A stretch of DNA of 64,000 nt from Vulcanimicrobiota bacterium (GCA_963834895.1 CAWIDM010000003.1:909569-973568), one strand, 5' to 3'. Positions 7,667 through 59,031 are shown, counted from the stretch's first letter. Notes: generated by a model not told the origin, from the sequence alone. Translations and numbers: made by a program.

Positions 7667-7697
7667 CGCCGCCGCCTTGCGCTCGCAGCGAGAATCG

Positions 7698-12245: not shown

Positions 12246-13188
12246 GTCCGGGGCCAAAGACCGAATCGCCGTCGTGATGGGCGGCAACAGCGCCGAGCGC
12301 GAGATCTCGATTCGATCGGGATCGGAGGTCGTGCGCGCGTTGCATTCGCTCGGCTACGAAGCGCAGTCGCTCGATTACGACGAGCGCTTTTTGGACGCGC
12401 TACGCCAGCTCAAGCCCGACCTCGTCTTCATCGCGCTTCACGGACCCGGAGGCGAGGACGGGCACGTACAGGCGCTCCTCGAATATCTCGCAATCCCGTA
12501 TACGGGCAGCGGGCTCGAAGCCGCCGCGCTCTCGATGGATAAGCATCTCACCAAGAAGCTGCTCGCGGCCGAAGGCTTACCGACGCCGGTTTGGGATCTC
12601 TTCGATCTCACGGGCGGCACTTTGCCGCTGCTCCCGGGATCGCTCGATCTTCCGCTGGTGATCAAGCCGCGGTTTCAGGGATCGGCGGTCGGCGTCGCGA
12701 TCGTGCACACGCACGAAGAGTGGACGAGCGCGATGCTGGGGGCATCGAAGACCTACGCGCAAATCCTCGCCGAAGAATACCTCGAGGGACGAGAGTTCAC
12801 GTGCGCGGTGCTCGGCGAAGAGGCGTTGCCGATCGTGGAGATCGTTGCAAATCGCGATGGTTTCTATAGTTACGGCGCCAAGTACGAGCCCGGCGGCAGC
12901 ACGCACGTCGTCCCCGCGCCGATCGACGAAGATCTGGCGGCTCGCTTGCAGATGCTGGCCCTCTCGGCCCACCGCCTGCTGGGCCTTCGCGACTATTCGC
13001 GCAGCGACTTCATCGTCAGGCCGGATCAGCGCCCGTATCTCTTGGAGATCAATTCGCTCCCTGGGCTGACGCCGGTGAGCCTCTTTCCGGACGCGTGCGC
13101 CGCCGTCGGAATCTCGTTCGAAGCGTTGATCGACCGGCTCGTCGGCTACGCGCGCGCTCGCGCCGATCTGCGCGATGCGGTCGCCTGA
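12235..13188 (+). CDS. ddl: D-alanine--D-alanine ligase
   Basis: ATP-grasp protein with VVMGGNSAEREISIRSG, HGPGGEDG and EINSLPGLT. ATG 12235 overlaps the murB end by 11 nt. Confidence 0.9.
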   Translation: MQPKSGAKDRIAVVMGGNSAEREISIRSGSEVVRALHSLGYEAQSLDYDERFLDALRQLKPDLVFIALHGPGGEDGHVQALLEYLAIPYTGSGLEAAALSMDKHLTKKLLAAEGLPTPVWDLFDLTGGTLPLLPGSLDLPLVIKPRFQGSAVGVAIVHTHEEWTSAMLGASKTYAQILAEEYLEGREFTCAVLGEEALPIVEIVANRDGFYSYGAKYEPGGSTHVVPAPIDEDLAARLQMLALSAHRLLGLRDYSRSDFIVRPDQRPYLLEINSLPGLTPVSLFPDACAAVGISFEALIDRLVGYARARADLRDAVA

Positions 13189-41086: not shown

Positions 41087-41872
41087 GTGCATTCGTCGCG
41101 GCGGGAGCGTGCGGTCGTTCTTCTCCACGGCATGAGCGCGAGCCCGATGCAATTCGAGCGCGTGGCAAACGATCTGCACCGCCGCGGGCACAACGTGCTC
41201 GTTCCCCGTCTCCCTCACCACGGTCACGCCAATCCGCTCTCAACCGCGCTCGCGCGACTTCAGGCCGAAGAGCTTTACGACGCGGTGGCCGAGTACGTTG
41301 CGATCGCGCAGGAGCTCGGCGAGCGCGTGACGGTTGCGGGATTCTCGCTCGGCGGTCTGCTCGCGGCTTGGGCCGCACAGCACCATGAGATCGAGCGCGC
41401 CGTTCCGATCGCGCCCTTCTTCGGAGTCTCCTGGATTCCGAACCGGTTGATGGGCCCCGTTGCCGAGCGGTTGCTGCGCGTGCCGAATCGCTTTCACTGG
41501 TGGAATCCGATCCTTCGCGAACGGCAATACCTCGCGACGAGCGGTTATCCGCGTTATGCGACGCACGCGATCGCGCATTCGTACCGCATCGCACGCTCGC
41601 TGCTCGACGAAGCTCGCGCGAATCGTCCGGTCGCCGAACACGTTACTATCGTCGCCAACGCAACCGAACTCGCGGTCAACAACTACGCGATTCGGCGCCT
41701 CTACGAAACGTGGCGCCGGCATCGTCCCGAGGGCGTCGAGCTGGCCATACTCACCGGGCTGCCGCTCTCGCACGACATCGTCTCACCGCTGCGCCGCCGG
41801 CGCCTCGCCGATCGCGTGCATCCGCATCTCCTGCGTGCGATCGATCCGGTCGCGGCGGTCCAAACGGCCTAA
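41087..41872 (+). CDS. Alpha/beta-fold hydrolase
   Basis: Only the C-terminal third of the 651-aa track ORF looks like real protein. It carries VVLLHGMSASP (oxyanion HG) and the nucleophile elbow GFSLGG. The GTG 41087 start is tentative. Confidence 0.65.
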   Translation: MHSSRRERAVVLLHGMSASPMQFERVANDLHRRGHNVLVPRLPHHGHANPLSTALARLQAEELYDAVAEYVAIAQELGERVTVAGFSLGGLLAAWAAQHHEIERAVPIAPFFGVSWIPNRLMGPVAERLLRVPNRFHWWNPILRERQYLATSGYPRYATHAIAHSYRIARSLLDEARANRPVAEHVTIVANATELAVNNYAIRRLYETWRRHRPEGVELAILTGLPLSHDIVSPLRRRRLADRVHPHLLRAIDPVAAVQTA

Positions 41873-43422
41873 TTGTAGTTGCGCAGCTTCGGCCAGACCG
41901 AAGCGAGCGGCGTCGTGATCCCCTCGCAAATCGAGATGGGGAATCCGTTCTCAAACGGGCGTCCCCACGGATTCGAAAATCGCGCCACGATGCGGTGAAC
42001 TCGGAAGAGGTGCGCATCCCGGTCGCATTCTCCGTGAACGTCGATCACGACGTTGCCGGTATAGCCGCGCGTCCCCCACATCCAATACTGATTGTGACCC
42101 GAGAGCACCGGCGGCAGGCCGTACTCCGCTCCGAAGAAATCGATCGCCGAAGCCTCACCGTAGTTGCTGGCAAGAATCGCCGCCTGGGCGCGCTTCGCGG
42201 GCGGCAACGAATAGTAGATTTGGGCGACGAGAGCCGCGAGCTCGCGCCATCCGTGCATGTCAGCCCAGTCGGGCGGCAGGTTGCCGATTCTGGTGCGTTC
42301 CGATTTTGCGAGCTTCACCTCGTGCGCCAACATCGTTTGCGCGACGCGGTCGTAGGCCGACATAGTTCGCTCCGGCAAGACCGGCATGAGCAGCGGGACG
42401 AGCAGGAGGCCCGCGCCCAGAACGTAGAGGGCGAGCGCCGGGCGCCAAACCATCTTCGTTTGAGTCCAGGCTTCGATCGTCACCGCGCCCGCGGCGATGA
42501 GGATCGGGTAGACGTCGCCGGGATAATAATCCTTTCCGTGGAGCAGAATCATCTGCGCGATCAGCGCGAGGTAGGCGATGCCGAGAAAGCGCGCGTCGCT
42601 GCGGCGCAGTAACGCGAACAATCCGATGACGGAAACCGGCGCGAACAGCGGGTGCACGATCATCACCTGCGTGACGATGTAATCGAGAGCGGAGAGCTGC
42701 GCGTTCTTATACTCGCCGGCGTTTCGGAGCAACGACCACATCGGGTACCCGTGGCTCGCCTGCCACAGGAAGCTCGGAAGAGCGATTGCCCCAGCCAGGA
42801 ATACGCCGCCGAAAAACCACGGCGTCAGCAGAACGCGCCGCTGGGGCACGAGCAGCAGTCCCGCAAGCATCGACACGGCGAAGAAGACGACGCTGTACTT
42901 GCTCTCCAACGCGACGCCGAGGACCGCGCCGACAGCGAGCCACCAGCGAGGGTCGCCACCCTTCACGATGCGCAACACGTAGAGCGCCGCAAGTGGCCAG
43001 AGCCACAAGCCGACGATATCGGTCGTGATCGTCGTCCCGAAGTGCATCAAAGCCGGAGTCAGCGCGGCAACGAGCGCGGCGAAGAACTCGGCGAAGGCGC
43101 CGCCGCCCAGCTCGATCGCGAGCAGGCAGGTCATGTAGACCGAGGCGGCCGCAAAGAACGCGGGAACCGCTCGCAGTAGAAAGAGCGAGTGTCCAAAAAG
43201 TTGCGAACCGGCGGCCAGAAGCGGCACGATCGGCGGCTGGTCGACGTAGCCCCAGGCCGGGCGGAAGCCGCAGATCACAAAGTACAGCTCGTCGCGAAAG
43301 AAGCCGTAGTGCGGGTTGGCGATCAGATGCACGATCAGCGTCGCGAGCGCCGCGGCCGCCGGGATGGCGCGGACCCGAAGCGCTGTGCTTGGGCGCGAAC
43401 GCCCGCTTCGATCGCCTACCAT
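41869..43422 (-). CDS. GT-C glycosyltransferase, family 39/PMT_2-like (copy A)
   Basis: Polytopic membrane protein. It has [11 protein letters not shown] in the first loop (DE-type motif) and a C-terminal soluble domain. It is a paralog of 47241-48755. ATG 43422 is needed to include TM1, which is conserved with copy B. Confidence 0.75.
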   Translation of the reverse strand: MVGDRSGRSRPSTALRVRAIPAAAALATLIVHLIANPHYGFFRDELYFVICGFRPAWGYVDQPPIVPLLAAGSQLFGHSLFLLRAVPAFFAAASVYMTCLLAIELGGGAFAEFFAALVAALTPALMHFGTTITTDIVGLWLWPLAALYVLRIVKGGDPRWWLAVGAVLGVALESKYSVVFFAVSMLAGLLLVPQRRVLLTPWFFGGVFLAGAIALPSFLWQASHGYPMWSLLRNAGEYKNAQLSALDYIVTQVMIVHPLFAPVSVIGLFALLRRSDARFLGIAYLALIAQMILLHGKDYYPGDVYPILIAAGAVTIEAWTQTKMVWRPALALYVLGAGLLLVPLLMPVLPERTMSAYDRVAQTMLAHEVKLAKSERTRIGNLPPDWADMHGWRELAALVAQIYYSLPPAKRAQAAILASNYGEASAIDFFGAEYGLPPVLSGHNQYWMWGTRGYTGNVVIDVHGECDRDAHLFRVHRIVARFSNPWGRPFENGFPISICEGITTPLASVWPKLRNYN

Positions 43423-43947
43423 GATGAAGAGTGGGGTGTGCCGCTCCACGGCGACTCTTCCCTTTTCGAGTTGCTCGTACTCGAAGGGGCGCAGGCCGGT
43501 CTCTCGTGGGAGACGGTGCTGCGCAAGCGCTCTCGTTACCGCGAGCAATTTGCGGGCTTCGATCCGGCACGAGTCGCGCGGTTCACGCCGGCGCGGATCG
43601 AGCGGCTCCTGCGAGATCCGGGCATCATTCGAAACCGCGCCAAGATCGAATCGGCGATCGACAACGCGCGAGCCGTGCTGCGCGTGCAAAAGGAGTTTGG
43701 AAGCTTCGACGCGTTCCTGTGGGGCTTGGTCGGCGGAGCGCCGATCGTCAACCGGCGCCGGCGCATCGAGCAGCTTCCCGCTGCAACCGACGAATCGCGT
43801 GCGTTGAGCGCCGAGCTGCGGCGACGCGGGTTCCGCTTCGTGGGCCCGACGATTTGTTATTCGTTCATGCAGGCGGCCGGAATGGTGAACGACCACCTCG
43901 TCGACTGCGCGTGGTACCGCTCCGCCCGATCGTTCGAGAAGGAGTAA
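43327..43947 (+). CDS. tag: DNA-3-methyladenine glycosylase I
   Basis: KRCAWA...IAYHDEEWGVP, LEGAQAGLSW, GPTICYSFMQAAGMVNDHLVDC. The Zn ligands (Cys, His, His, Cys) are all present. ATG 43327 is the only canonical start upstream of the essential Cys codon at 43384. Confidence 0.85.
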   Translation: MHDQRRERRGRRDGADPKRCAWARTPASIAYHDEEWGVPLHGDSSLFELLVLEGAQAGLSWETVLRKRSRYREQFAGFDPARVARFTPARIERLLRDPGIIRNRAKIESAIDNARAVLRVQKEFGSFDAFLWGLVGGAPIVNRRRRIEQLPAATDESRALSAELRRRGFRFVGPTICYSFMQAAGMVNDHLVDCAWYRSARSFEKE

Positions 43948-43982
43948 GGCAGCGCTCTTGGGCATGCAGCGGCGTGAAGAGC

Positions 43983-45338
43983 ATGATCGTTCGAAAAAGC
44001 AAGACGCCGGTTGCCATTGGTCTCATCCTCGCGATTTTTGGGCTGGCTGCGTGCCACGGCTACGGGCTCCCGTTCGGCGCTCCGATCGAGAGCGCGGGCG
44101 ATCGCGGCGCGGGGCGTCACGCGGCGACGCCGATCCAGCACGTGGTCGTAATCGTTCAGGAGAATCGGACGCCGGATTATCTCTTCCAAGGCATACCGGG
44201 CGCCGACATCGCGAAATACGCTATTGACTCGCAGGGCGAGCGCGTGCCGCTGCGCCAGATTTCGCTGCGCACGCAGTGGGACCTCAAACACTCCCATGCC
44301 GCGTTCCTCAGAGATTACGACCATGGCAAGATGGACGGTTTCGATGCGGGATTACCGGAACAGTTCCACCTTCGGCCCTTCGGCTATGCACCCGAATCCG
44401 AGGTTGCGCCCTATCACGAGATGGCGAAAGAGTACGCGTTCGCCGACCATATGTTTCAGAGCAATCAAGGGCCGAGCTTTCCCGCGCACTTGTACATCGT
44501 GAGCGGCACGGGCGGCGATCCCGCCATCGCTCCGTATAAGGCCGCGAGCAATCCGCACGACCGGATCAACGGAAGGCCCGCGCCCGGCGGTTGCGACGCG
44601 CGCCGGTCGGTCTACGTCGAGACGATCGATCCGCGCGATGGGGATCCCGGCCCCAAACCCTTCCCATGCTTCAATCGCGCGGTGCTTTCCGATCTTCTGC
44701 ACGCCGAGCACGTGACGTGGCACTACTACCAGCCGCATCGCGGGGCGGGCCGCTGGGAGGCGATGGACGCGTATCGCCACGTTCGCTACAGCCGGCAGTA
44801 CCAGAACGTGATCTGGCCGTCGCAGACGATTCTCACCGACATCAAGCAGGGCCGTCTGGCGAACGTATCGTGGGTGATCCCCGCCGGCGCTTGGTCGGAC
44901 CACGCGGGGCGTCTCGGCTCCACGAAAGGGCCTTCGTGGGTCGCGGCGATCGTCAATGCCGTGGGCGAGAGCAAGTATTGGAGGAGCACGGCGATCTTCA
45001 TCACGTGGGACGATTGGGGCGGCTGGTACGACCACGTCCCGCCGACCATTTACAATTCGTACGAGCTTGGTTTTCGCGTCCCGCTCGTCGTCGTTTCGCC
45101 CTACGCCAAGCGAGGCTACGTCTCGAAAGTCCATCACGAGTTCGGGAGCATCCTGGCCTTTACCGAAGAGACGTTCGGCATTCCGAAAGGCGCACTTGGC
45201 TCGACGGATCGCCGCGCCGACGACCTCATGGACCTCTTCGATTTTAAGCAGAATCCGCGGGAGTTTCACCGCATCGACGCTCCGCCGTTTCATCCGGGAA
45301 ACGACGCCGAGCAGACCGTCGAGGATGAGGACCCCTAG
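43983..45338 (+). CDS. Phosphoesterase-family lipoprotein (phospholipase C / AcpA acid phosphatase type)
   Basis: Lipobox LAAC after a signal peptide. IQHVVVIVQENRTPDYLF is typical of the phosphoesterase family. The C-terminal region has ITWDDWGGWYDHVPP. Confidence 0.75.
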   Translation: MIVRKSKTPVAIGLILAIFGLAACHGYGLPFGAPIESAGDRGAGRHAATPIQHVVVIVQENRTPDYLFQGIPGADIAKYAIDSQGERVPLRQISLRTQWDLKHSHAAFLRDYDHGKMDGFDAGLPEQFHLRPFGYAPESEVAPYHEMAKEYAFADHMFQSNQGPSFPAHLYIVSGTGGDPAIAPYKAASNPHDRINGRPAPGGCDARRSVYVETIDPRDGDPGPKPFPCFNRAVLSDLLHAEHVTWHYYQPHRGAGRWEAMDAYRHVRYSRQYQNVIWPSQTILTDIKQGRLANVSWVIPAGAWSDHAGRLGSTKGPSWVAAIVNAVGESKYWRSTAIFITWDDWGGWYDHVPPTIYNSYELGFRVPLVVVSPYAKRGYVSKVHHEFGSILAFTEETFGIPKGALGSTDRRADDLMDLFDFKQNPREFHRIDAPPFHPGNDAEQTVEDEDP

Positions 45339-45607
45339 TGTGCTGTCCCAGAAGTTCGGTGCATAAAGTCGCGAGCGCCGGAGCGCACTGGCGAGGCGCG
45401 AGGAGGGAGCGTAGCCGTAGCTCTGTGACCGACGAGCAACAAAGCCAGTGCGCATCCGCCGCCGCGACCCTTCGGGCTGGCCGTTTGACGGTCGCGGGCT
45501 GCGTCACTCTTCGCTCGCAAAGCGCTGCTTTTGTCGCTCATCGTTCCTTGCCCGCACTCCACCAAACGGCCAGCTTTATACATCGAACTCCTGGGACAGC
45601 ACACTAG
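45335..45607. mobile_element. MITE-like element E1 (273 bp, 34-bp TIRs, non-autonomous)
   Basis: CTAGTGTGCTGTCCCAGAAGTTCGGTGCATAAAG at 45335-45368 pairs with its inverted partner at 45574-45607, with 3 mismatches in 34. A near-identical copy lies at 56216-56488 in inverted orientation. Confidence 0.8.
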
Positions 45608-45615
45608 GGAACCTC

Positions 45616-47241
45616 CTAGGAACCGAAGAGCTCGCGCAGTTTAAACTTCTGAATCTTGCCGGTGACGGTCATCGGAAAGGAATCGGTAAAGCGGACGTAG
45701 TGCGGAATCTTGAAGTGCGCGATCCGGCCGCGGCAGAACTCGCGCAGATCTTCTTGCGTCAACGCCGCTCCATCGTGCAGGATGACCCAAGCGCAGAGCT
45801 GTTCGCCGAACGTTTCGTCGGGAACGCCGACGACGCTGACGTCCCGGATCGCGGGGTGGCCGAAAAGAAACTCTTCGATCTCTCGCGGATAGATATTCTC
45901 GCCGCCGCGAATGACCATATCCTTGACACGGCCGCAGACGCTAACGTACCCATCGTCGTCCATGATCCCGATGTCGCCCGTATGCATGTAGCGTGCGGGA
46001 TCGATCGCAGCCGCGGTGCTCTCGGGGTCGTTCCAGTAGCCGAGCATCACGAGGTAACCGCGCGCACAGATTTCGCCCGGCGTGCCGCGCGCAACGGTTT
46101 CGCCGCGCTCGTCGACGATTTTCGCCTCTACGTGCGGATGCACGCGGCCGACCGTCGCGACCCGCTTCTCGACCGGATCGTCGGTCGCGGTTTGAAACGA
46201 GCACGGCGAGGTTTCGGTCATGCCGTACGCGATCGTTACTTCTTCCATGTGCATCTCGCCGCGCACGCGCTTCATCACCTCGATCGGGCAGGGCGCTCCC
46301 GCCATGACCCCCGTCCGAAGCGAAGTAACGTCGTAGGATGAAAAATCCGGTAGCGCCAGCTCGGCGATGAACATCGTCGGCACGCCGTAGAGCGAGGTGC
46401 AACGCTCGGATTCCACGGCCGCCAGCGTGGCTTGCGGGTCGAAAGCCGGAGCGGGAATCACGATCGTGGCGCCGTGCGTAACGCAGCCGAGCGTGCCGAG
46501 CACCGATCCGAAGCAGTGGTAGAACGGAACCGGAACGCAGACGCGATCCTCGGCCCTATAGTGCAAAACTTCACCGATGAAGAAGGCGTTGTTCACGATG
46601 TTGTGGTGCGATAGCGTGGCTCCCTTGGGAAAGCCGGTCGTTCCCGACGTGTACTGGATGTTTACGGGCCGGTCGCACTGCGTCGCGCGCTGCCGGTCGC
46701 GCAGCGCGGCGGGGTCGACGCGCTGTGATATCGCCGTGAGGTCGCTCCAGTGCAGATCGCCGGCCCGGCGCGGCTCGCGGTCGCCGATTGCGACCGCGCA
46801 TCGCAACGCGGGCAATCCGTCGCGCACTTCTTCGAGCATTGCCAGATAGTCGCTCGTCTTGGAGTGGGTCTGCAGCAGGAGCACCGAGACCCCGCTCTGG
46901 CTCAGCGCGTAAGCGAGCTCCGCAGTACGATAAGCGGGATTGACGTTGACCAGAATCGCACCGATCTTTGCAACCGCAAACTGTGCGAGGGCCCACTCCG
47001 TGCAGTTCGTCGCCCAAATGCCGACGCGCTCGCCCTGCTCGACGGGCAACGCGATGAGAGCCTGCGCGATCTGATCGCTCGCGCGCTGCAGGTCGCGATA
47101 GGTTAGGCGAATCCCTTGGCTGCAGGAGACCAGCGCGTCCCGTTGTGGGTATATCGCGGCAATCCGATCGAGAAGATCGCCGATGGTGTCGCCTGTCAGC
47201 GGCGTGGCGCTTGCGCCCTGTGCGTAGCTCGGCGCAGGCAT
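45616..47241 (-). CDS. AMP-forming acyl-CoA synthetase
   Basis: 541 aa with AMP-binding motif [12 protein letters not shown], plus GYWNDPE and TGDIG...[16 protein letters not shown]. Its ATG shares one base with the GT39-B stop (TAATG). Confidence 0.9.
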
Positions 47242-48755
47242 TAGATATAGACGCGAAGCTGGGGCCAGAGGGCGGCGAGCGGCTTGGTGATGCCGGTGCA
47301 GATCGAGATCGGTATGTCCTGCTCGTACGAGATCACCCAGGGCGGATTAAATCGGGTGACCAACCGCGCGGCGCGAAAAAGTCCGGGAAAATCGTGGCGC
47401 CCGCAGTCGCCGTCGACGTCGATGACGACGTTGCCGGTATATCCGTGAATTCCCCAAAGCCAGTAATTGTTATGTCCGGAGAGCGCCGGCGGCAGGCCGT
47501 ACTTCGCCCCAAAGAAGTCGATCGCGGCCGCCTCGCCGTAGTTGCTCGCAACGATTGCCGCTTGATCTCGCTGCGCCGCCGGAAGTGCATAGTAGATGCC
47601 CGATACCGTTGCGGCGAGCTCCGGCCAGCCATGCATATCGGCCCAGTCCTCGGGCAGGGCTGCGGTGCGGTGCCGTTCGGTCGCGAGCGCGGATCGCGGG
47701 ATGTGGAGCGCGCGCGCGGCGAAGGAAGTGTAACGCAGCATTGCCGTTTCGGAGAGCACCGGCAGCGCGAATGGTGCGAAGAAAGCGCCCGCCGCAATCG
47801 TCGCCGCCACGACGGCGCCGCGCACCACGTACGCCCGCTGCGTCCAGCCCTCAATTGCGGCGCCGCCGGCCGCGATCAGGATCGGATAGACGTCGGCGGG
47901 ATAGTAGTACTTCGCGTGCAGCGCGACCATTATCGCAATGAGGATGAGATAGGCATACCCGAGGAAGCGCGTCACCCGTCCGCGGAGCAGCCAAATCAGT
48001 CCGATTATCCAGATGGGCCACGTAAAAAGATTTGTAACGAGCAGTTGCTGGAAAAGAAAGAGTCCGGGGGCGGCGACGACGTTCTTTCGGTTGGCGCCGT
48101 TGCGCAGCAGCTCCCACATCGGAAAACCATGGAATGCTTGCCAGAGGAAGTCGGGCAGCGCGATGAGCGCGGCGACGGCGGCGCCGGCTAAGAACCAACG
48201 CGATGCGAGCACGCGCCGCTGCGGAGTGAGCGCCAAACCCGCGAGCAGCGCCACGGCAAAGAAGAGCACGCTGTACTTGCTCTCAAGCGCGATCCCGACC
48301 GCTGTGCCGGCGGCGATCCACCAGCGCGGATCGGCTCCCTTGACGATGCGCAGCACGCAGAGCGCCGTAAGCGGCCAGAGCCAGAGGCCGACCATATCCG
48401 GTCCGACCTTGGCGCCGAAGCTCTCGAGAACCGGCGCCCCGAGGTACGCGAGGGTTGCAAGCGAGGCGGCAAAGACTCCGCCTCCGAGCTCGTATGCAAG
48501 CAAGCACGTCACGTACGCGCCGCCTGCCGCAAAGAGCGCCGCAACCGCGCGCAGCGCGAAGAGCGAATGGCCGAAAAGCTGGGAGCCGGCGGCGAGAAGC
48601 GGCACGACCGGCGGTTGATCGACGTAGCCCCACGCCGGATGGAAGCCGCAAATGATGAAGTAGAGCTCGTCGCGGAAGAAGCCGTAGTGCGGATTGGCCG
48701 CGAGGTGAATGCCGAGCGTGACGAGCGCGGCGATCGCCGCGACCCTCGTTCGCAC
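47241..48755 (-). CDS. GT-C glycosyltransferase, family 39/PMT_2-like (copy B)
   Basis: 504 aa. It has the same architecture and motifs as copy A ([18 protein letters not shown], the C-terminal [12 protein letters not shown]...GHNNYW...ISIC). GTG start at 48755. Confidence 0.8.
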
Positions 48756-48764
48756 CTGAGGTTC

Positions 48765-49061
48765 CTAAGTGGGGTCGAAGGCGTCGCTGCGAATCATCGC
48801 CTCGGAGATCTCGCGTGCCCGGCGATAACGGCCGCGCGCCGCATCGTTCACTTCGGCCGGAAGCTCTGCGAGAATCCGTTCGAGCTCTTCGCCGAACGTC
48901 GTGCCGATCGAGTCGGGGGTGTAGCCCTCCCGGTAACGGAGCCGCTGCGCGATCATCAGCCGGTAGATTCGGTCGGTCGCGAGATCTTCCATGTACCCGT
49001 CGAGCAGGCTCGCTCCGCGCCCCTCAAGGATGCCGTTGCGATAGCGAATCACGCTGCGCAC
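48765..49061 (-). pseudogene. Malate synthase C-terminal-domain relic (98 codons, possibly still translated)
   Basis: VRSVIRYRNGILEGRGASLLDGYMEDLATDRIYRLMIAQRLRY aligns to the malate synthase A segment [44 protein letters not shown]. The tail GRYRRAREISEAMIRSDAFDPT aligns to GRFDDAARLMEQITTSDELIDFLT. About 430 N-terminal residues are missing. Confidence 0.5.
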
Positions 49062-49084
49062 CGCCGCGCGCGTCCCCTCGATCG

Positions 49085-50548
49085 TCAGGGCGTCACTTCG
49101 TAAAGCTCGTGGTACGGGTCGAGCGTAGCGTAATCGCGCGAGCCCGGGACGCCGTCGACGTCGTGCGGGTTGACGAGGACGAAGATCCGCCGGCCTTTCG
49201 CCCATAGCCGGTAGATCGGAGTTCGCAGCCGGTCGTCGGAGACGATGACGCGCCCTGGGAGCGAATCGTCGACGTAGGCGCCGTAAGCCAGTGAGGTGGC
49301 GTCGAGCCAATCGGTGACGATCACGCTGCCGGGCGGCACGTACGGACGGACTGCGTCGATCACCCATCGCCCGCCCTCGGCCGGCCGATGATAGAAGAAC
49401 CCGCGCTGTTGCGAGAACGCCACGCCTACGCCAATCGCCAAGAAGGTAACGAGTGCGCCGTGCAACAGCGGGTCCGTGCCGCGGCCGGAGCGCGGCGTCA
49501 GCGCGCCCAGCATCGGAACCGCGAGCCAGGATACGAGCAACCGGTATCGTCCGACGTCGCTCTCATTGGGATAGACGACCGAGAAGAGCAGTCCCGCGAG
49601 GCAGGCGAAGCTCAGCACGAGCGCCGCGCGCCAATCGTGCCGCCACGCCGCCACCAGACCGCCGAAGATCAGCAACAGCGCGAAGGTGCCGTATTGAGCG
49701 TGCATCGTCGTTATGAACGTCCAGAGCGCCGCTCCCAGGTGCACCGGGTTCAGCGAGGCGAGAAAATACGCCGGCGTCTCCGTTTCGCTTCCCGTGAGCT
49801 CCAACTCGAGGCCATGCAGCGTTCGCGGGTCGTTGTAATTCCAAAAGATGCCGCCACCGGCGCCCGGCAGCACCGCCGCCGGATCGAGGTGATGTGACGC
49901 GACGTACTGCGAGCGCAGCGGGAGATAGGAGTAGATCAGCAGCCCCGCGACGACGATGGCGAGCGAGGCTGCGACGACGCGCACCCGCGGGCGAGGCTTT
50001 GCAATCGCCGCGCCGATCAAGAACGCCGGCAGAATCCAAAGCGCGTTCGGATGTGCGGCCATCCCCAAGCCGCAGAGGCCGAAGGCCGCGAGCATCCATG
50101 TGCCGCCGCCGCCGCGCATCCAGCGCAGAAACGCGTAGATCGCGACGGCCGAGCACGCCACGGCAAGATCCTGCGCCTCGGCGCGAATCGCGTGCGACCA
50201 GGCATTCTGCGAGAACGCAAACCAGAGGGTCGCGAGCAGCGCGACGGGGATGCTCGCTCCAAACTCGAGCGCAACGCCGTATGCCGCGGCGGCCGCGACG
50301 GCCATTGCGACCCCGCTCATCGCGTTCATGCGCCACGCGACCGAGCCGAACCAAATTGCGTGCGACCACACGTATCCGGCGAGCACGTAGAACGGAAAGC
50401 CGGTCGGGTGCGAGATGCCGAGAATGTACGGAACGCCTTGCAGTTCTGCGGTGTCCCACGATCCCGGTTCCGGCGAGACGCTCGCAACGTAAACCGCCGC
50501 CGGAACGGCGAAGGCCGCCAGCAGAGCGAGGAGGCGCGCCGCCTTCAC
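49085..50548 (-). CDS. DUF2723/TMEM260-like GT-C membrane protein
   Basis: Polytopic membrane protein. GSWDTAELQGVPYILGISHPTGFPFY matches the DUF2723 signature. Its GTG 50548 overlaps the tricorn stop (GTGA). Confidence 0.7.
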   Translation of the reverse strand: MKAARLLALLAAFAVPAAVYVASVSPEPGSWDTAELQGVPYILGISHPTGFPFYVLAGYVWSHAIWFGSVAWRMNAMSGVAMAVAAAAAYGVALEFGASIPVALLATLWFAFSQNAWSHAIRAEAQDLAVACSAVAIYAFLRWMRGGGGTWMLAAFGLCGLGMAAHPNALWILPAFLIGAAIAKPRPRVRVVAASLAIVVAGLLIYSYLPLRSQYVASHHLDPAAVLPGAGGGIFWNYNDPRTLHGLELELTGSETETPAYFLASLNPVHLGAALWTFITTMHAQYGTFALLLIFGGLVAAWRHDWRAALVLSFACLAGLLFSVVYPNESDVGRYRLLVSWLAVPMLGALTPRSGRGTDPLLHGALVTFLAIGVGVAFSQQRGFFYHRPAEGGRWVIDAVRPYVPPGSVIVTDWLDATSLAYGAYVDDSLPGRVIVSDDRLRTPIYRLWAKGRRIFVLVNPHDVDGVPGSRDYATLDPYHELYEVTP

Positions 50549-53500
50549 GCCAGCGTGGGCAGTGGCAGCGATGGACGCGTGGAGAGATCGGGGCGCAGCT
50601 CGACGTATCCTTCGAGCGCGCGATCCATCAGCTGCAGCGCGAGCTCGAGCTGTGGATCTTTTCCGTCGCGGTAATCGTGTGGGGCGATGTCGACGTCGTA
50701 ATCGGGATCGGTCCCGTGGTTCTCCACGCCCCACCCGACGTCGACGAACCAGAAAGAGAACTCCGGCTGCGTCGTCAGCGTCCCGTCGACGAGATGATGG
50801 TACGGCTCGATGCCGATGACCCCGCCCCAGGTACGCTTACCGACGAGCGGGCCGAGCTTGTAGAGCTTGAAGCCGTGACTGAAGATGTCGCCGTCGGAGC
50901 CCGCGAATTGATTCGTAAGCGCCACGATCGGGCCGCCGACAGACTCCGGCGGATAGGGAACCGGCGCCCCGTAGCGCGGCGCGTCGTATCCGATTCGCTT
51001 GCGCGCGAGCTTTTCGAGGAGCAGCGGCGAAACGTGCCCGCCGCGGTTGTAGCGAACGTCGACGATCAGGCCCTTGCGGTCGAATTCGCTCAGATAACCG
51101 CGATGGAACTCCGAGAAACCCCACGGGCCCATGTCGGGAATGTGCAGGTAGCCGATGCGCTCGCCGGTTCGCTCGTGCACGGCGCGTCGGTTCGTTTCGA
51201 CCCAGTCGCGATAGCGCAGCGCCGCTTCGTTCGCGAGGGCCCTAACGATTACCGTGCGCTCGTGGCCTTTCTTCTCGCGCAGCGTCACCGAGATGTTCTT
51301 TCCCGACGCGTTCACCAGCAGCTGGTCCGGCGTGACGTCGCGCGATAACCGCTTGCCGCCGATCGCGACGACGCAGTCGCCCTCGGAAACGTTGAGCCCC
51401 GGCTCGGCGAGCGGTGAATCGTGATCGCGATTCCACGAGTCGCCGCGATAGACGCGCTCGATGCAATAGCCTCCGCGTTCTTCGTCCCAGCGAAGGTCGG
51501 CGCCGAGAAAGCCGCGCTGATACTGGGGCGGCTCGCGATAGTCACCGCCGTACTCGTAGGCGTGCGACGTGCCGAGTTCGCCCTGCATCTCCCAGATGAG
51601 GTCGGAGAGCTCGCCGCGCGTACGCACCCGCGGGAGCAGCGCGGCGTAGCGGTCGTAGACGCGATCCCAGTCGATGTCGCTCATGTCCTCGACCCAGAAG
51701 TTTTCGGCCTGCAAGCGCCACGCTTCCCGATACATCTGCGCCCACTCGTCGCGCGGAACGATCTCCACGCTTGCACGATCGAGTTCGATCCATCCGCTCT
51801 TGCGCCCCGGCTCGGGCAGCGGCTTCTGCTCCTCACCCTCCTCGGGAAGATCGTTGAGCGCGTCGATCGCGCGAAGGCGCTCGCGCGAGCGGTAGATCAG
51901 TGTTCTGCCGTCGCCCCCGAGCCGAATCTCGTCGCACTCCGGAGCGATCGTCGCGAGCCGCTGCTGATCGAAATCGTACGCCAACAGCGTTCCGTGCTCG
52001 TCGTTCTCGACGTCCTCGCGGCGGCTCGGCTTGATGCCCTTGACGGGAAAGCGCGTGAAGAGCACTCGCTCGCGTACCGCGACGATCTGATCGTACTCGC
52101 CCTCGTCGACGGGAAAGCCGAGCACCCGCCCGGTGATTCCGTCGAAGTCGATATCGATGTCGGCGGGTTTGCTCGGCTTGTTGTTCGACCGCTCGTTCTC
52201 GTGACGGTCGTGATGGATCGGCTTTGGCTTGGGCACGAACGGCGACGGCACGTCGCCGCGCAGCGTCACGACGAACGGCCGGCTCGCCTGCGGAAAGCTT
52301 AGATCGAACTGCAACGCGTCGTAGACCGGATTGAAGTCCCGAGTCGAGATGAAGTAGAGGTACTTTCCGTCGGGATCCCATGCCGGCGACTTATCGGTAC
52401 GCAGCGGCGAGCTCACGTCGTGGACTTTACCCGAGCGCACCTTGACGACGCGAATGATCGAGCTGCCGTGCGCCGGCCACCAGACGTAAGCGACGAAACG
52501 GCCGTCGGGTGAAAATGCGAGATCCTGGATTCGATACGACGGGCAGGTATCGACGACGCGCACGCTGCCGTCATCGAGGTCGAGGAGGCAGAGATCGTGC
52601 CGGTGATTCGCAAAGGCGACCACGCTGCTCGTCGGCGAACAGACCATATCGGTGACGCGACCGATGTCGCCGTCGGTAACGAGCTTGGGATCTTCGGAGG
52701 CGTCCGCGCGCCGGACGGTGATCTGCTCGTACCCGTTGACGTCGGTGACGGAAACCAGGCGCTCGCCGTCGTGCAGCCATTGTGTGAGCCGCGTGCGAGC
52801 GCGGCTGCCCGTGCCGTAGCGGACTGCCGCTCCCTCGAAGAGCGGCATCGTAAATTCCTGTCCGCGCGCAACGAAGGCGATCTGCGTGCCATCGGGGCTC
52901 GGAACGAAATGTTCGAGCGATTCTGAAGCCTTTTCAAATCGTCGCGCCGTCTGCGGCATCGGTGAGTTCGTTGCGATCGCGATTCGGCGGACGCTCTCGC
53001 CGGCGACGGCGTAGCAGCCGATCTCCGCGCCGGCCGAGTAGACGATTCGCTTGCCGTCTGTCGAAGGAAAGCGTACGTAATACTCGCTCTCGTGCGTGTG
53101 GCGCGTGATGCCGCTCCCGTCGAGCGCGCACGAATAGATGTTGCCGATGCCTTCATGGTCGGCCAAGAAGAAGATACGATCGCCGATCCACATCGGCCAG
53201 GTTGGATTTCCGTCGGGAAGCGGAAGCCGCGAGAACGCTCCCGTCCCGTGCGCGTCGATCCAAATCTCTCCCGCGGTGCCGCCGCGGTACCGCTTCCAGC
53301 GTGCCGGATCGGCCGCGTTGCGTCCGATTGCGAGCCGTCCCTGCGGCCCGAACGAGAGCGCTCGCGCGTGGCCCAGCTTGAGCTCGCGAGGAGTGCCGCC
53401 TTCACGCGAGATTGCGAACAGGCGCGTTTCGCCCTCGTACCACGTCGTGGGATTGGCGACGAAGTAGATCTCGCTGCCGTCGGCGCTCCATCCGCTCGCC

Positions 53501-53769
53501 CAGAGGATCGTCGCCCCGAGATAGGTGAGGCGCTTCGGCTCGCCCCCGCGCGCGGGCATCACGTAGAGCTCCGGATTTCCCTCGTCGGTCGAGACGAACG
53601 CGATCCACGCGCCGTCGGGTGAGAATCGAGGAAACGAGCACGTGCCGAAACTGACCGTGAGACGCGTCGCGTCGCCGCCCTCGGCCGGTACGGTCCAGAG
53701 ATCGTCTTCGCAGACGTAGAGAATGCGGTCGCCTGCTATCGATGGATAGCGATAGTATCCTAGATCCAT
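50545..53769 (-). CDS. tri: Tricorn protease homolog (beta-propellers + PDZ + S41 peptidase)
   Basis: 1074 aa. N-terminus YYRYPSIAGDRILYVCEDDLWTV with repeated propeller blades. The C-terminal S41 region has GSDGDIF...GKRTWGG. Confidence 0.85.
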   Translation of the reverse strand: MDLGYYRYPSIAGDRILYVCEDDLWTVPAEGGDATRLTVSFGTCSFPRFSPDGAWIAFVSTDEGNPELYVMPARGGEPKRLTYLGATILWASGWSADGSEIYFVANPTTWYEGETRLFAISREGGTPRELKLGHARALSFGPQGRLAIGRNAADPARWKRYRGGTAGEIWIDAHGTGAFSRLPLPDGNPTWPMWIGDRIFFLADHEGIGNIYSCALDGSGITRHTHESEYYVRFPSTDGKRIVYSAGAEIGCYAVAGESVRRIAIATNSPMPQTARRFEKASESLEHFVPSPDGTQIAFVARGQEFTMPLFEGAAVRYGTGSRARTRLTQWLHDGERLVSVTDVNGYEQITVRRADASEDPKLVTDGDIGRVTDMVCSPTSSVVAFANHRHDLCLLDLDDGSVRVVDTCPSYRIQDLAFSPDGRFVAYVWWPAHGSSIIRVVKVRSGKVHDVSSPLRTDKSPAWDPDGKYLYFISTRDFNPVYDALQFDLSFPQASRPFVVTLRGDVPSPFVPKPKPIHHDRHENERSNNKPSKPADIDIDFDGITGRVLGFPVDEGEYDQIVAVRERVLFTRFPVKGIKPSRREDVENDEHGTLLAYDFDQQRLATIAPECDEIRLGGDGRTLIYRSRERLRAIDALNDLPEEGEEQKPLPEPGRKSGWIELDRASVEIVPRDEWAQMYREAWRLQAENFWVEDMSDIDWDRVYDRYAALLPRVRTRGELSDLIWEMQGELGTSHAYEYGGDYREPPQYQRGFLGADLRWDEERGGYCIERVYRGDSWNRDHDSPLAEPGLNVSEGDCVVAIGGKRLSRDVTPDQLLVNASGKNISVTLREKKGHERTVIVRALANEAALRYRDWVETNRRAVHERTGERIGYLHIPDMGPWGFSEFHRGYLSEFDRKGLIVDVRYNRGGHVSPLLLEKLARKRIGYDAPRYGAPVPYPPESVGGPIVALTNQFAGSDGDIFSHGFKLYKLGPLVGKRTWGGVIGIEPYHHLVDGTLTTQPEFSFWFVDVGWGVENHGTDPDYDVDIAPHDYRDGKDPQLELALQLMDRALEGYVELRPDLSTRPSLPLPTLA

Positions 53770-53825
53770 GACGCCTCAAACTTGGCGACCCGGCATGCGA
53801 GGTCCCGCGTTTGGGCCGCCATGAA

Positions 53826-55229
53826 TTACTGATGCGGCATGGCGCCGCCGGTCGAGTGAAGGAGCCGTCCAAGGGTCATTTCGATCTCGGCTGTATTCTG
53901 GACTTGCGTGAAGTAGGGTACGAGCGTGGGGGTGCGCGAGCGCTGCTCGAATGGCAGCATCGGGCCGCCCCAGGCGAATTGCGTCGCCGCTTGGCCCGCG
54001 AGACTGCGAAAGAAGAGTTCGGCCCCGAGCGCGTTCGCCCAGCCGAACTCGGGACGGGTGTACCGCCAGTAGCCGTCGGGATAAAAGCTCTCGTGGATGA
54101 GCCCGCTCTCCCCATCGGTCTCGGCAAGCGTCGTGATTGCGGTTGCGACTTCGATCGACGACGTCGCGGTCAGGGCGCGCCCGATGATGCCGAGCGGCCA
54201 AACGTAACCATACGGAGTATGCGGGCTGCCCAGCCCCTGCGCGTATCGCCCCGAGAAGTAGAACGGGTTGTCCATGCTGAGCGCAAAGGCGCGAGTTGCC
54301 AGATAGGTCGGATCGAAGGACGAGCACCAATCGATATACGGCAGCGTCGTGAGGTTCGGAATGTTTGCGTCGTCCATCAGGTCGTATTTGCCGAAGCCGT
54401 CGGTTTCGTAGGCGTACATCCAGACGCGGCGGCTCGCGTCGTAAAACCTTCCGTACTGCAGAATTCCCGCTTCGACGCGCTCCTCGAGCGCCTGCGCTCG
54501 ATCGGCGAGCGCGCGATCGCGGTAACCGTCGATGGCGAGCTGCACGATGTCGCGCAGCGCTACGCACGCGGCGGCGTTCTGCGGAATATTGAAGCGGTAG
54601 GCTGCCGCATCGTCGGACGGGCGGAACGCACCCCAGATCATACCGGTCGCCTCGTTGTATTCGTCGTCGGTATAGACCGTGACGGGGTACGCGTACCGAC
54701 TGCACGTGCGATGATGCTCCTCGCATGCATACGTGCGGACGACCGTCGCCAGCGCGCGGTGCAGGTCCGTCGTAAAGACCGTCGCGTCGTGGGTCGATCG
54801 CCAGTAGACCGATGCCAGGATCACCGGCCATGCGAGCGAGTCGACCTCCCACTTGCGCTCCCAAATCGTGTAATCCGATTGCAGCGCGTTCGCATACGGA
54901 TCGGTGAGAATATTTCTGGCGTTGCGTTCGATCACGCCGGCGAAGCGAGCCCGCAAGACCGGATAGGATCGTTGGAATCGAATGTACGGTATCGTCTGCG
55001 CCGAGGAATCGCGCAGCCACATCGCCGGAATGTCGCCCGATTGCACGTACGTGGTGACGTCGTCTTCGAGAAAGAAATCGTGGAAGAGGGTATGGAAGAG
55101 CGTCGCGGTTTGGATGTCGCGAACGCGCTTGCCGGTGAGCGGAACGACCAGCGTTTCGGCCGCCGCGGGCGCCGCACTTTGGTACGCGATCATGAGGACG
55201 AGCGCGAAGCTCGCGCAACGCGCAAGCAC
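53826..55229 (-). CDS. Secreted GH125-family exo-alpha-1,6-mannosidase
   Basis: Signal peptide (LARCASFALVLMIAYQSAAPAAA). GDIPAMWLRDSSAQ and GLIHESF are typical of GH125. GTG start lies 7 nt after GGAG. Confidence 0.8.
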   Translation of the reverse strand: MLARCASFALVLMIAYQSAAPAAAETLVVPLTGKRVRDIQTATLFHTLFHDFFLEDDVTTYVQSGDIPAMWLRDSSAQTIPYIRFQRSYPVLRARFAGVIERNARNILTDPYANALQSDYTIWERKWEVDSLAWPVILASVYWRSTHDATVFTTDLHRALATVVRTYACEEHHRTCSRYAYPVTVYTDDEYNEATGMIWGAFRPSDDAAAYRFNIPQNAAACVALRDIVQLAIDGYRDRALADRAQALEERVEAGILQYGRFYDASRRVWMYAYETDGFGKYDLMDDANIPNLTTLPYIDWCSSFDPTYLATRAFALSMDNPFYFSGRYAQGLGSPHTPYGYVWPLGIIGRALTATSSIEVATAITTLAETDGESGLIHESFYPDGYWRYTRPEFGWANALGAELFFRSLAGQAATQFAWGGPMLPFEQRSRTPTLVPYFTQVQNTAEIEMTLGRLLHSTGGAMPHQ

Positions 55230-55298: not shown

Positions 55299-56219
55299 AT
55301 GGACCTTCTGCGCGAGTTCGAGCTGCGCAATCCCCGCGCGCTTGCGCGGGCGATCTCGCTTGCCGAGGCGGGCCGAGGCGGCGACCTCGTTCGCGCGCTC
55401 TATCCGAAGACCGGACGTGCGACGACGGTCGGCCTTACCGGACCGCCCGGCGTCGGCAAATCGACGCTGGCTTCCGGCCTGGTGCGCAGCGCGCGCTCGC
55501 GCGGCCAGCGCGTGGGCGTCGTATCGGTCGACCCCTCCTCGCCGTTCTCGCACGGCGCACTGCTCGGCGACCGCATCCGTCTTGCGGAGCATTTCACCGA
55601 CGAAGCCGTCTTCATTCGATCGATGGCCAGCCACGGGCATCTCGGCGGCCTCGCCGGCGCGACCGCCGATGCCGTGCTGTTGATGGATGCCTTCGGCTTC
55701 GATCTCGTGCTGATCGAAACCGTCGGCGTCGGACAGAGCGAGGTGGCGATCGCCGAGCTCGCGGAGACGACGATCGTGGCGTTGCAGCCCGGGAGCGGCG
55801 ATTCGATCCAAGTGCTCAAAGCAGGCATCATGGAGATCGCCGACATCTTCGTCGTCAACAAGAGCGACCACCCAATGGCCGATCAGTTGCGCCGAGAGAT
55901 TCGATCGATGATGGAGATGCAGCACTGGCCTCGATGGGTACCCGAACTCATCGCGACGCAAGCATTGGAGGGAAAAGGAATCGACGAGCTGGTGAGCGCG
56001 ATCGAACGCCACACGGCGTACTTGAACGAAACGGGCGAGATCGAAGGGCGGCGCCGCGACGCATTCACCCATCAAGTCCGCCAGCTCGCGCTGGGGCGCC
56101 TGGAGCAACGGCTCGATCGCGCGTTGAAAGCGCAACCGCGCGACGACCTCGACCCATACGAAGCGGCCGATCGCGTTCTCTCCGAGCTCGGTCTCTCGTC
56201 TCCGCGGACGGCACACTAG
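55299..56219 (+). CDS. meaB: Methylmalonyl-CoA mutase accessory GTPase (MeaB/ArgK)
   Basis: GPPGVGKST and VVNKSDH. Only the last 306 codons of the 802-aa track ORF are used; the remainder is antisense to the GH125 gene. Confidence 0.9.
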   Translation: MDLLREFELRNPRALARAISLAEAGRGGDLVRALYPKTGRATTVGLTGPPGVGKSTLASGLVRSARSRGQRVGVVSVDPSSPFSHGALLGDRIRLAEHFTDEAVFIRSMASHGHLGGLAGATADAVLLMDAFGFDLVLIETVGVGQSEVAIAELAETTIVALQPGSGDSIQVLKAGIMEIADIFVVNKSDHPMADQLRREIRSMMEMQHWPRWVPELIATQALEGKGIDELVSAIERHTAYLNETGEIEGRRRDAFTHQVRQLALGRLEQRLDRALKAQPRDDLDPYEAADRVLSELGLSSPRTAH

Positions 56220-56488
56220 TGTGCTGTCCCAGGAGTTCAGTGTATAAAGCTGGCCGTTTGGCGGAATGCGGGCAAGGAACGATGAGCGACAAAAGCAGCG
56301 CTTTGCGAGCGAAGAGTGACGCAGCCCGCGACCGTCAAGCGGCCAGCCCAAAGGGTCGCGGCGGCGGATGCGTACTGGCTTTGTTGCTCGTCGGTCACAG
56401 AGCTACGGCTATGCTCCCTCCTCGCGCCGCGCCAGTGCGCTCCGGCGCTCGCGACTTTATGCACCGAACTCCTGGGACGGCACACTAG
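56216..56488. mobile_element. MITE-like element E2 (273 bp, inverted relative to E1)
   Basis: CTAGTGTGCTGTCCCAGGAGTTCAGTGTATAAAG ... CTTTATGCACCGAACTCCTGGGACGGCACACTAG. It is collinear with the reverse complement of E1 throughout. Confidence 0.8.
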
Positions 56489-56537
56489 GCGCGTCTTTGG
56501 GGAGAATCTCGGGCCCGCGTCGAAAAGCTCGCCCGCT

Positions 56538-58760: not shown

Positions 58761-59031
58761 GAGCCTGCCGGACTATGCTCGTGTGCGATGCTGAGGTCGA
58801 TTTCGGATGAGCTTTAGGAGCGAGGGAGGGAGCATAGCAGCGCTCTGCAACCGACCGAGCGACGACAAGATCGCCGAAATCGACCTCAGCCCTTGGGGTT
58901 GGTCGCGGCGCCAATCGCCGACTGCGTCTCTCCTCGCTCAAATGGCGCTGTCATTCCACGCTCGTCGATCCTTGTCGGCGAATGGCGGCGCGAACAACAG
59001 CGCGCACGACCATAGTCCGGCAGGCTCCTAA
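58757..59031. mobile_element. MITE-like element E3 (275 bp, different TIR family, core homologous to E1/E2)
   Basis: TTAGGAGCCTGCCGGACTATGCTCGTGTGCGATG at 58757-58790 pairs with an inverted partner ending at 59031. The first 21 nt match perfectly and 31 of 34 match overall. There is an internal perfect 17-bp inverted repeat, 58790-58806 with 58874-58890. Confidence 0.75.

Follow-up and report, generated by a model that had tools for sequence, protein, structure and literature searches.

The best-described relatives of the proteins considered in this study are human TMEM260, a proven O-mannosyltransferase for which Asp52 has been proposed as the catalytic residue (PMC10214176), the GT-C glycosyltransferases ArnT (GT83) and PMT (GT39), the tricorn protease of Thermoplasma acidophilum, and the GH125 alpha-1,6-mannosidases of Clostridium perfringens and Streptococcus pneumoniae. 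Homologs of such proteins are encoded side by side on a 64,000-nt stretch of DNA from a Vulcanimicrobiota bacterium (GCA_963834895.1 CAWIDM010000003.1:909569-973568), which was analyzed as a whole and is hereafter called the window. Between positions 45616 and 55229, six open reading frames (ORFs) on the minus strand encode, in order of transcription, a GH125 mannosidase, a tricorn protease, a DUF2723/TMEM260-like GT-C protein, a remnant of a malate synthase, a PMT_2-superfamily GT-C protein, and an AMP-forming acyl-CoA ligase. A first-pass annotation had interpreted this array as a module for envelope mannosylation, trimming, and turnover. However, no published description of such a system was found in the literature on DUF2723, GH125-mannosyltransferase, bacterial TMEM260, or Eremiobacterota glycosyltransferases. 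From the comparative analysis reported here, we instead favor, with a probability of roughly 70%, the view that the six ORFs are a compacted, conserved-synteny segment of the Baltobacteraceae core chromosome that forms no dedicated system, each gene doing the job of its own family.

The layout of the array was determined by reading the window DNA (G+C, 62-68%) base by base. As the first-pass annotation had it, the six frames are co-directional and are separated by 56, -4, 23, 9, and -1 nt. The 56-nt gap (53770..53825) lies between the GH125 stop codon at 53826 and the tricorn ATG at 53769. The tricorn TGA (50545-50547) overlaps the DUF2723 GTG (50548-50546) in the sequence GTGA (-4 nt), the GTG taking the final G of a tricorn Ala codon, GCG. 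The DUF2723 TGA at 49085 is followed after 23 nt by the GTG of the relic ORF at 49061, and the relic TAG at 48765 is followed after 9 nt by the PMT_2 GTG at 48755; at 47241, PMT_2 and the ligase gene share the sequence TAATG (-1 nt). When translated from the start codons chosen here, the 487-aa DUF2723 protein and the 504-aa PMT_2 protein were each 100% identical to public gene calls.

Gene order was compared across about 90 related genomes. A scan with the tricorn protein, limited to one genome per species, yielded 80 loci (loci and contigs are given L numbers below), all from Eremiobacterota/Vulcanimicrobiota and mostly from Baltobacteraceae (Candidatus Cybelea, Tumulicola, Aquilonibacter), with tricorn identities of 62-87%. 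The window's own genome falls into Baltobacteraceae, a family of soil bacteria, close to Candidatus Cybelea, and many of the related metagenome-assembled genomes stem from Stordalen palsa/bog and SPRUCE samples. The gene-order matrix was built by tblastn with the window proteins and reference proteins of relatives; 65 loci were informative for DUF2723 and 68 for GH125. The ancestral order of the family begins with mcm <- meaB / GH125 -> tricorn -> (DUF2723) -> aceA -> aceB and continues with (LytS kinase -> LytTR regulator) -> PMT_2 -> ... -> second PMT_2 -> aminotransferase -> infC-rpmI-rplT. DUF2723 directly followed tricorn in 40 of the 65 informative loci, all with at least 74% tricorn identity, and was absent from that place in the other 25 (62-75% tricorn identity). 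GH125 adjoined tricorn in 43/68 loci and was non-adjacent or absent in 25/68; it lay at least 150 nt from tricorn in 19 loci and was replaced by a directly adjoining meaB in 3. The divergent meaB-mcm genes next to GH125 or tricorn were themselves conserved in relatives, with meaB identities of 80-90%. The gap from GH125 to tricorn measured 16-85 nt in close relatives and usually ~800 nt in farther ones. In L049 this place is occupied by uppS, encoding undecaprenyl-diphosphate synthase (PF01255, 1e-73), on the opposite strand (9211-9927, -), which breaks GH125-tricorn co-transcription there; a gap of ~800 nt at the equivalent place, recognized by size only, was present in L040-L051, L056, L058, L061, and L074.

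Unrelated genes were also interleaved further along the array. In most relatives, the two GT-C genes are separated by an isocitrate lyase gene (L004 14818-16140) and a malate synthase gene (L004 16137-17642), both assigned by Pfam, although malate synthase alone was found there in L029, L054, and L070, and nothing in L017-L028. Moreover, a LytS-type kinase and a LytTR regulator, or a 210-aa hypothetical protein, are encoded before PMT_2 in relatives. The kinase (PF06580) and regulator genes lie immediately upstream of the PMT_2 ortholog in L086 (6647-8487), L041 (18158-20220), L031, L042, L049, and L074, and are absent from the window. This link spans more divergence than that of DUF2723 with tricorn, as it is found in several loci of 72-75% tricorn identity from which DUF2723 is absent. 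Two metagenomic contigs, L085 and L086, display the fullest order, GH125-tricorn-DUF2723-isocitrate lyase-malate synthase-(hypothetical or kinase and regulator)-PMT_2-ligase. A dedicated system would be expected to recur beyond close relatives and to be free of unrelated insertions; the array was instead found in one sub-lineage, interrupted by aceAB, the two-component system, and uppS.

The fourth ORF of the array explains part of its present appearance. The remnant (48765..49087, minus strand; 98-codon ORF, 48765-49061) matches the malate synthase C-terminal domain (Pfam MS_C PF20659, 1.7e-6) and covers positions 402-498 of 511 in NCBIfam malate_syn_A. Homology to malate synthase extends ~8 codons beyond the chosen GTG on its upstream side and begins where DUF2723 ends, at that gene's stop codon (49085-49087). 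In blastn comparisons, the window follows L004 up to 49085, the final base of the DUF2723 stop codon (L004 14688), and the match resumes at L004 17321, at aceB codon ~395. Thus, relative to L004, 2,632 bp are missing, comprising the spacer after DUF2723, the complete aceA gene, and 79% of aceB (codons 1 to ~394). The breakpoints were identical when L005, L010, L037, L070, or L085 was used for comparison, and the junction is a clean in-register join that leaves the remnant frame open. The 98-codon ORF corresponds to the 3' end of aceB in the aceA-aceB pair of related Baltobacteraceae (L004 14818-17642), with 81% aa identity to L004; unlike that intact pair, the window is devoid of aceA and of aceB codons 1 to ~394. 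Because these codons are deleted, a malate synthase can no longer be encoded by the remnant. The dN/dS of the remnant against intact orthologs was 0.17, compared with 0.13 among intact pairs, a value that fits a recent deletion and retained constraint alike. The first-pass annotation's view of this ORF as a malate-synthase relic was therefore borne out at the nucleotide level, and the 2.6-kb deletion is part of why the array seems compact and thematically "pure" here. That this genome has lost both genes from their ancestral place is relevant to metabolic reconstruction of Eremiobacterota metagenome-assembled genomes, and the 98-codon ORF is at risk of being miscalled as a malate-synthase-domain protein.

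The last gene of the array (45616..47241, minus strand) encodes a 541-aa AMP-forming protein of the fatty-acyl-CoA ligase family (Pfam AMP-binding, 5e-99), which scored 809.5 bits against NCBIfam NF009233 (fatty acid CoA ligase family), just under the cut-off of 832. By tblastn, none of the 80 species loci contained a homolog of this ligase. It adjoins the PMT_2 ortholog in just two other contigs, L085 and L086, and is thus not unique to this genome; the ligase gene is a sub-lineage-specific arrival. In Aquilonibacter, a ligase ortholog of 70-73% identity is located in another region, downstream of a cupin gene that it overlaps by 4 nt (L167/L168 3939-7620; L169 5525-7629). We also considered whether PMT_2 and ligase might travel as a mobile pair, but the Aquilonibacter PMT_2 near the ligase is not orthologous to the window PMT_2 (no tblastn match), and its proximity was judged to be a coincidence because PMT_2 genes are common in these genomes.

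Outside the lineage, the linkage dissolved. An exhaustive HMMER search returned 6,148 DUF2723 family clusters at 50% identity with E <=0.001, 152 of them with E <=1e-30. Searches for orthologs of DUF2723, PMT_2, and the ligase gave only sequences of at least 65% identity, and distant DUF2723 members were reached through a search of representatives and a profile-seeded metagenome scan. The latter yielded 80 DUF2723 loci, 11 of which were orthologous and repeated the array; the other 69 were distant (22-41% identity) and offered 595 kb of flanking DNA in total, 57 having at least 3 kb and 39 at least 8 kb of flank. Tricorn, GH125, isocitrate lyase, malate synthase, and the ligase were found at none of these 69 loci, and a single weak PMT_2 match was obtained. 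The neighbors of four distant DUF2723 members (36-43% identity) were unrelated as well; one of the four is flanked by a beta-lactamase-family gene and by rplT, and its genome shares the housekeeping genes of this neighborhood. Given that no partners surround the distant loci, the linkage is a property of one lineage's chromosome and not of the protein families. In several metagenome contigs, adjacent duplicates of distant DUF2723-family genes were observed 124-248 nt apart, on the same strand in L114, L126, L129, and L131 and on opposite strands in L106. Taken together, these data indicate that the array is inherited Baltobacteraceae gene order and that its proteins are new members of known families. 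Neighborhood conservation, named by the first-pass annotation as the check on its proposal, was accordingly observed in part: the array and its GTGA overlap are not unique to this genome and are kept in close relatives, but they are confined to one lineage.

The first-pass annotation had also regarded the GTGA overlap of a giant protease gene with a membrane GT-C gene as odd. Among overlapping prokaryotic genes, however, an overlap of 4 nt is the most frequent kind. In L086, -4 overlaps occur at 4 of 7 array junctions, the kinase-regulator, regulator-PMT_2, and PMT_2-ligase junctions being the three others, and the hypothetical-PMT_2 junction of L085 is likewise -4. Because such overlaps are frequent in the array regardless of gene function, the GTGA is not odd in itself. 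Of the 56 loci in which tricorn and DUF2723 adjoin, 48 retained the GTGA, at tricorn identities as low as 74%, and two more had a -1 overlap. A scan of the region for terminators found no terminator-like site in any intergenic gap of the array; in the region as a whole there were 12 such sites (8.3 +/- 3.0 expected), and those on the minus strand at 45616-55229 all fell within coding sequence. Scans for sigma-70 promoters and terminators were at background level, and Rfam returned no match anywhere in the window, the repeat elements described below included. Since the GTGA is kept in 48/56 pairs and the gaps lack terminator-like sites, co-transcription and coupling of tricorn and DUF2723 are likely to be real and stable in the clade. 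More generally, the six genes are probably co-transcribed, and translational coupling is probable both from tricorn to DUF2723 and from PMT_2 to the ligase.

The families of the individual proteins were then examined. Pfam supported the first-pass assignments of GH125, tricorn, DUF2723/TMEM260-like protein, malate-synthase relic, PMT_2-like GT-C, and acyl-CoA synthetase; the GT39 label given to the PMT_2 protein did not stand. The 467-aa GH125 protein (53826..55229, minus strand; Pfam PF06824, 2.4e-97) belongs to a family of metal-independent exo-alpha-1,6-mannosidases with an (alpha/alpha)6 catalytic domain; its score was 326.9 bits (cut-off, 23.4) over profile positions 25-412 of 414, and its residues 37-409 aligned with the alpha-1,6-mannosidase of C. 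perfringens (PDB 2NVP/6RQK, 8.5e-85). The catalytic motifs RPSDDA and HE are conserved in that alignment; we take the general acid to be the Asp of RPSDD and the general base to be the Glu of HE. Upon inspection, the N-terminus (MLARCASFALVLMIAYQSAAPAAA, followed by E) resembles a Sec-type signal peptide, in agreement with the first-pass prediction of a secreted enzyme. Two tandem GH125 paralogs, which share ~51-56% and 71-75% of their residues with the window mannosidase, were noted in L031, L033-L036, L039, and L057, at ~6-10 kb in each locus. They stand 1.1-1.3 kb apart in L033-L036 and L057, and in L034 the gap holds a gene for a beta-lactamase-family serine hydrolase (L034 7441-8547). In the farther relative L041, a 599-aa retropepsin-like aspartyl protease with a PDZ domain is encoded between GH125 and tricorn (7400-9199), and a similar Asp_protease gene lies near the ligase gene in L169.

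The tricorn ortholog (50545..53769, minus strand; 1074 aa) matched Pfam PDZ_Tricorn, Tricorn_C1, and Peptidase_S41 (each ~1e-24) as well as PD40. Its alignment with the T. acidophilum enzyme (PDB 1K32, E=7.5e-182) is colinear over residues 8-1060 and includes the beta6 and beta7 propellers and the C1, PDZ, and S41 C2 domains. Equivalents of His746 and Ser965 (chain index 720 and 939, with an offset of +26) are conserved in the motifs TSHAYE and AGSDGD. As predicted by the first-pass annotation, the protein appears to have no signal peptide, its N-terminus aligning to 1K32 without any leader.

The DUF2723 protein (49085..50548, minus strand; 487 aa, GTG start) contains the N-terminal GT-C module PF11028 (1.1e-17; 64.9 bits, cut-off 24.2). 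Residues 10-213 aligned with human TMEM260 (9rql, 4.2e-11), placing D32/E35 of the motif WDTAE opposite GDSGE, and both acidic residues were invariant in 20 orthologs and in 22 distant homologs. Its AlphaFold2 (AF2) model (pLDDT 83) has a GT-C fold, with ArnT, STT3, ALG12, and PglB as best matches, and a small C-terminal alpha/beta domain of ~90 aa (residues 394-485) stands in place of TPR repeats. In TMEM260, a C-terminal TPR domain selects IPT-domain acceptors; no Pfam TPR match was obtained for the DUF2723 protein.

The PMT_2-superfamily protein (47241..48755, minus strand; 504 aa; Pfam PF13231, 4e-20) carries R28-D29-E30, invariant in 20 sequences. This acidic loop-1 motif is common to other GT-C families and does not discriminate among them. 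The protein reached 20.6 bits against PF02366 (PMT), under the cut-off of 22.7, and had no Pfam match to MIR or PMT_4TMC, no NCBIfam match (the PMT equivalog NF058602 and ArnT included), and no PDB sequence match. The top fold match of its AF2 model (pLDDT 72) was ArnT 5EZM (E=1.6e-5, TM 0.49, 16% identity), and PMT structures ranked 20th or lower. On these grounds membership in GT39 was rejected. Identity with ArnT (GT83) was also rejected, given the 16% identity, the missing NCBIfam ArnT match, and the lack of arn genes nearby. Public names for the PMT_2 orthologs are used interchangeably (GT39, ArnT-like, Dol-P-Man transferase), and the profile results indicate that "GT39" is a generic database label only. 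Profile searches and structure models, which the first-pass annotation had named as checks on the two GT-C proteins, supported PF11028 in DUF2723 and the acidic loop motif in both, and placed the PMT_2 protein outside GT39 with ArnT as its top fold. Both models combine the acidic first-loop motif with a small C-terminal alpha/beta domain predicted to be extracytoplasmic, and hhalign of the two families gave weak similarity of the core and no common C-terminal domain. As judged from the models, the sugar cannot be read off the GT-C folds, and no sugar, mannose included, is assignable to either GT-C. A third GT-C gene, downstream at 41869-43965 (minus strand), encodes a 698-aa PMT_2 protein (PMT_2, 1e-19) that is extended by ~200 aa at its N-terminus. 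The gene is a paralog of 47241-48755 (~60% identity over the core), and many relatives conserve it on the downstream side of the array.

Several observations weigh against inherited order as the sole explanation. Three GT-C genes (49085-50548, 47241-48755, and 41869-43965) lie within 9 kb of a mannosidase with predicted export, the four occupying 13 kb, which fits an envelope-glycan theme, as does uppS, which separates GH125 from tricorn in L049 and thus in at least one farther relative. Also, the stability of GTGA in 48/56 adjacent pairs could reflect selection for co-expression, the non-orthologous PMT_2 of Aquilonibacter likewise lies upstream of the ligase gene by way of a cupin gene (DUF2277-PMT_2-cupin-ligase) in 2/3 contigs, and PMT_2 neighbors of very divergent sequence could have escaped a tblastn search that used window queries. 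The proximity of the GT-C genes to GH125 and the placement of uppS would suit a partial envelope-glycan module, in which DUF2723 and both PMT_2 GT-Cs would assemble a mannose-containing glycoconjugate (glycoprotein or lipoglycan) from a polyprenyl-phosphate-sugar on the outer face of the membrane and GH125, after export, would trim the alpha-1,6 branches of this product, with tricorn, aceAB, and the ligase as bystanders. The shared acidic motif and extracytoplasmic domain of the two modeled GT-Cs, the alignment of DUF2723 to the O-mannosyltransferase TMEM260 (PMC10214176), and the signal-peptide-like N-terminus of GH125 point in the same direction. However, sugar specificity is not readable from the folds, ArnT is the top match of both models, and the window ORFs that were scanned included no gene for a polyprenyl-phosphate-mannose synthase, a flippase, or any further step of a glycan pathway. 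Moreover, GH125 and the GT-Cs part company in farther relatives, the distant DUF2723 genes are never beside GH125, and the role of GH125 may be no more than the use of mannan from fungi or plants as food. We therefore regard such a partial module as rather unlikely. Still more speculative is a hitherto unrecognized Baltobacteraceae envelope mannoglycan pathway in which the TMEM260-like GT-C and the two PMT_2 GT-Cs would use polyprenyl-phosphate-mannose to glycosylate acceptors in the periplasm or on the surface, the alpha-1,6 linkages would be remodeled by exported GH125, and fixed translational coupling to tricorn would set the expression level of the first GT-C.

The full model of the first-pass annotation, in which all of the genes, including those for the cytosolic tricorn and the ligase, constitute one mannosylation, trimming, and turnover system, draws on the tight spacing throughout, the retention of GTGA, and the PMT_2/ligase overlap seen here and in L086. 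It did not survive the comparison and is very improbable. The compartments mismatch, the tricorn being cytoplasmic and the GT-C active sites and GH125 extracytoplasmic; aceAB and the two-component system lie inside the array in relatives, and the ligase is missing from the 80 loci. The links decay within the family and do not recur outside it, and separate transcripts and independent distributions of the components are already suggested by the comparative scans. That the arrangement is an assembly or binning artifact of a metagenome-assembled genome hardly deserves credence: although the contig is of that type and repeated elements flank the region, the order is shared by dozens of independent assemblies, long contigs and closed chromosomes among them, and the deletion is a clean in-register join. 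We thus retain the compacted segment of inherited chromosome as the most probable reading. Under it, the GH125 protein, with its recognizable family and catalytic motifs, would be an exported exo-alpha-1,6-mannosidase, its export and substrate being predicted, and the tricorn ortholog, with full-length homology and conserved Ser/His, would be a giant cytoplasmic peptidase. Both GT-Cs, from their fold and acidic motif, would transfer a polyprenyl-phosphate-linked sugar onto some acceptor on the outer side of the cytoplasmic membrane. The deletion would have compacted the array, the ligase gene would have been gained in the sub-lineage, and co-transcription and coupling would follow from the tight packing of a stable chromosomal neighborhood.

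The array is bounded upstream by meaB (55299..56219, plus strand), which encodes a MeaB/ArgK GTPase (Pfam PF03308, 1.2e-90) and diverges from GH125 across a 69-nt gap. Downstream, a phosphoesterase-family gene (~44133-45338, plus strand; PF04185, 1.9e-50) converges with the acyl-CoA ligase gene. A repeat search located an element resembling a miniature inverted-repeat transposable element (MITE) between the convergent 3' ends of these two genes (45334..45607; 274 nt, with 34-42-nt terminal inverted repeats, CTAGTGTGCTGTCCCAGGAGTTC...). A second copy at 56216-56489, 96% identical and inverted, lies between meaB and the methylmalonyl-CoA mutase gene (mcm), so that the two copies bracket the ligase-to-meaB block; the meaB TAG stop codon is inside the terminal CTAG of this copy, and in L004, L037, and L070 the tblastn alignments of meaB and mcm are almost contiguous (~ -4 nt). 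A weaker copy is present at 58817-58974, and another in L002 at 5034-5221. A pattern search for the element's termini found 4 occurrences versus 0 expected, the DNA fold of the element was -94 kcal/mol (z = -10.5), and its termini appear compatible with a TA target duplication. A 367-aa ORF (44352-45455, minus strand) overlapping the phosphoesterase gene has no family match and starts inside the MITE-like element; it is probably a shadow ORF. Elsewhere, the window consists of core housekeeping genes: it contains an almost complete dcw cluster for cell wall and division (14-13188: PBP transpeptidase, murE, murF, an F420-ligase-like ORF, murD, ftsW, murG, murB, and ddl), as well as citrate synthase (gltA), hisF, alr, groEL, POR, lon, purM, pheST, infC-rpmI-rplT, a class-III aminotransferase gene, meaB-mcm, and gltX.

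This locus exemplifies how, in a genome that is compact and rich in G+C, a tight row of overlapping genes on one strand can mimic a novel system although it reflects inherited order and a deletion. Bacterial DUF2723/TMEM260-like GT-Cs constitute a large family with no characterized member, and given that most of the distant homologs examined are without the queried partners, their function must come from biochemistry and not from neighborhood inference. When set beside the described systems, each protein of the array combines family features with clear departures. Like the GH125 enzymes of C. perfringens and S. pneumoniae (2NVP, 3QT3, 3QPF), the window mannosidase is alignable over the whole catalytic domain (E=1e-71 to 1e-85) and keeps the acid and base motifs; unlike theirs, its context is no N-glycan utilization locus, as GH38, GH92, and transporter genes are not nearby. 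Like T. acidophilum tricorn, the window protease has the domain order of two beta-propellers, C1, PDZ, and S41, the His/Ser equivalents, and apparently no signal peptide; unlike it, the protein is bacterial (Eremiobacterota), and its gene is, in this lineage only, probably coupled translationally to a membrane GT-C gene. ArnT is the top structural match of both GT-C models (E=1.6e-5 and 1.4e-6, TM ~0.5), but they are only 14-16% identical to it and have no NCBIfam ArnT/PMT equivalog match, and no arn operon genes are nearby; unlike PMT, the window PMT_2 protein carries neither a MIR nor a PMT_4TMC domain. Finally, the DUF2723 protein shares with human TMEM260 the N-terminal GT-C module and the acidic first-loop motif, whereas it is shorter (487 aa versus 707-729 aa), lacks the C-terminal TPR domain, and would use a bacterial polyprenyl phosphate as its donor.

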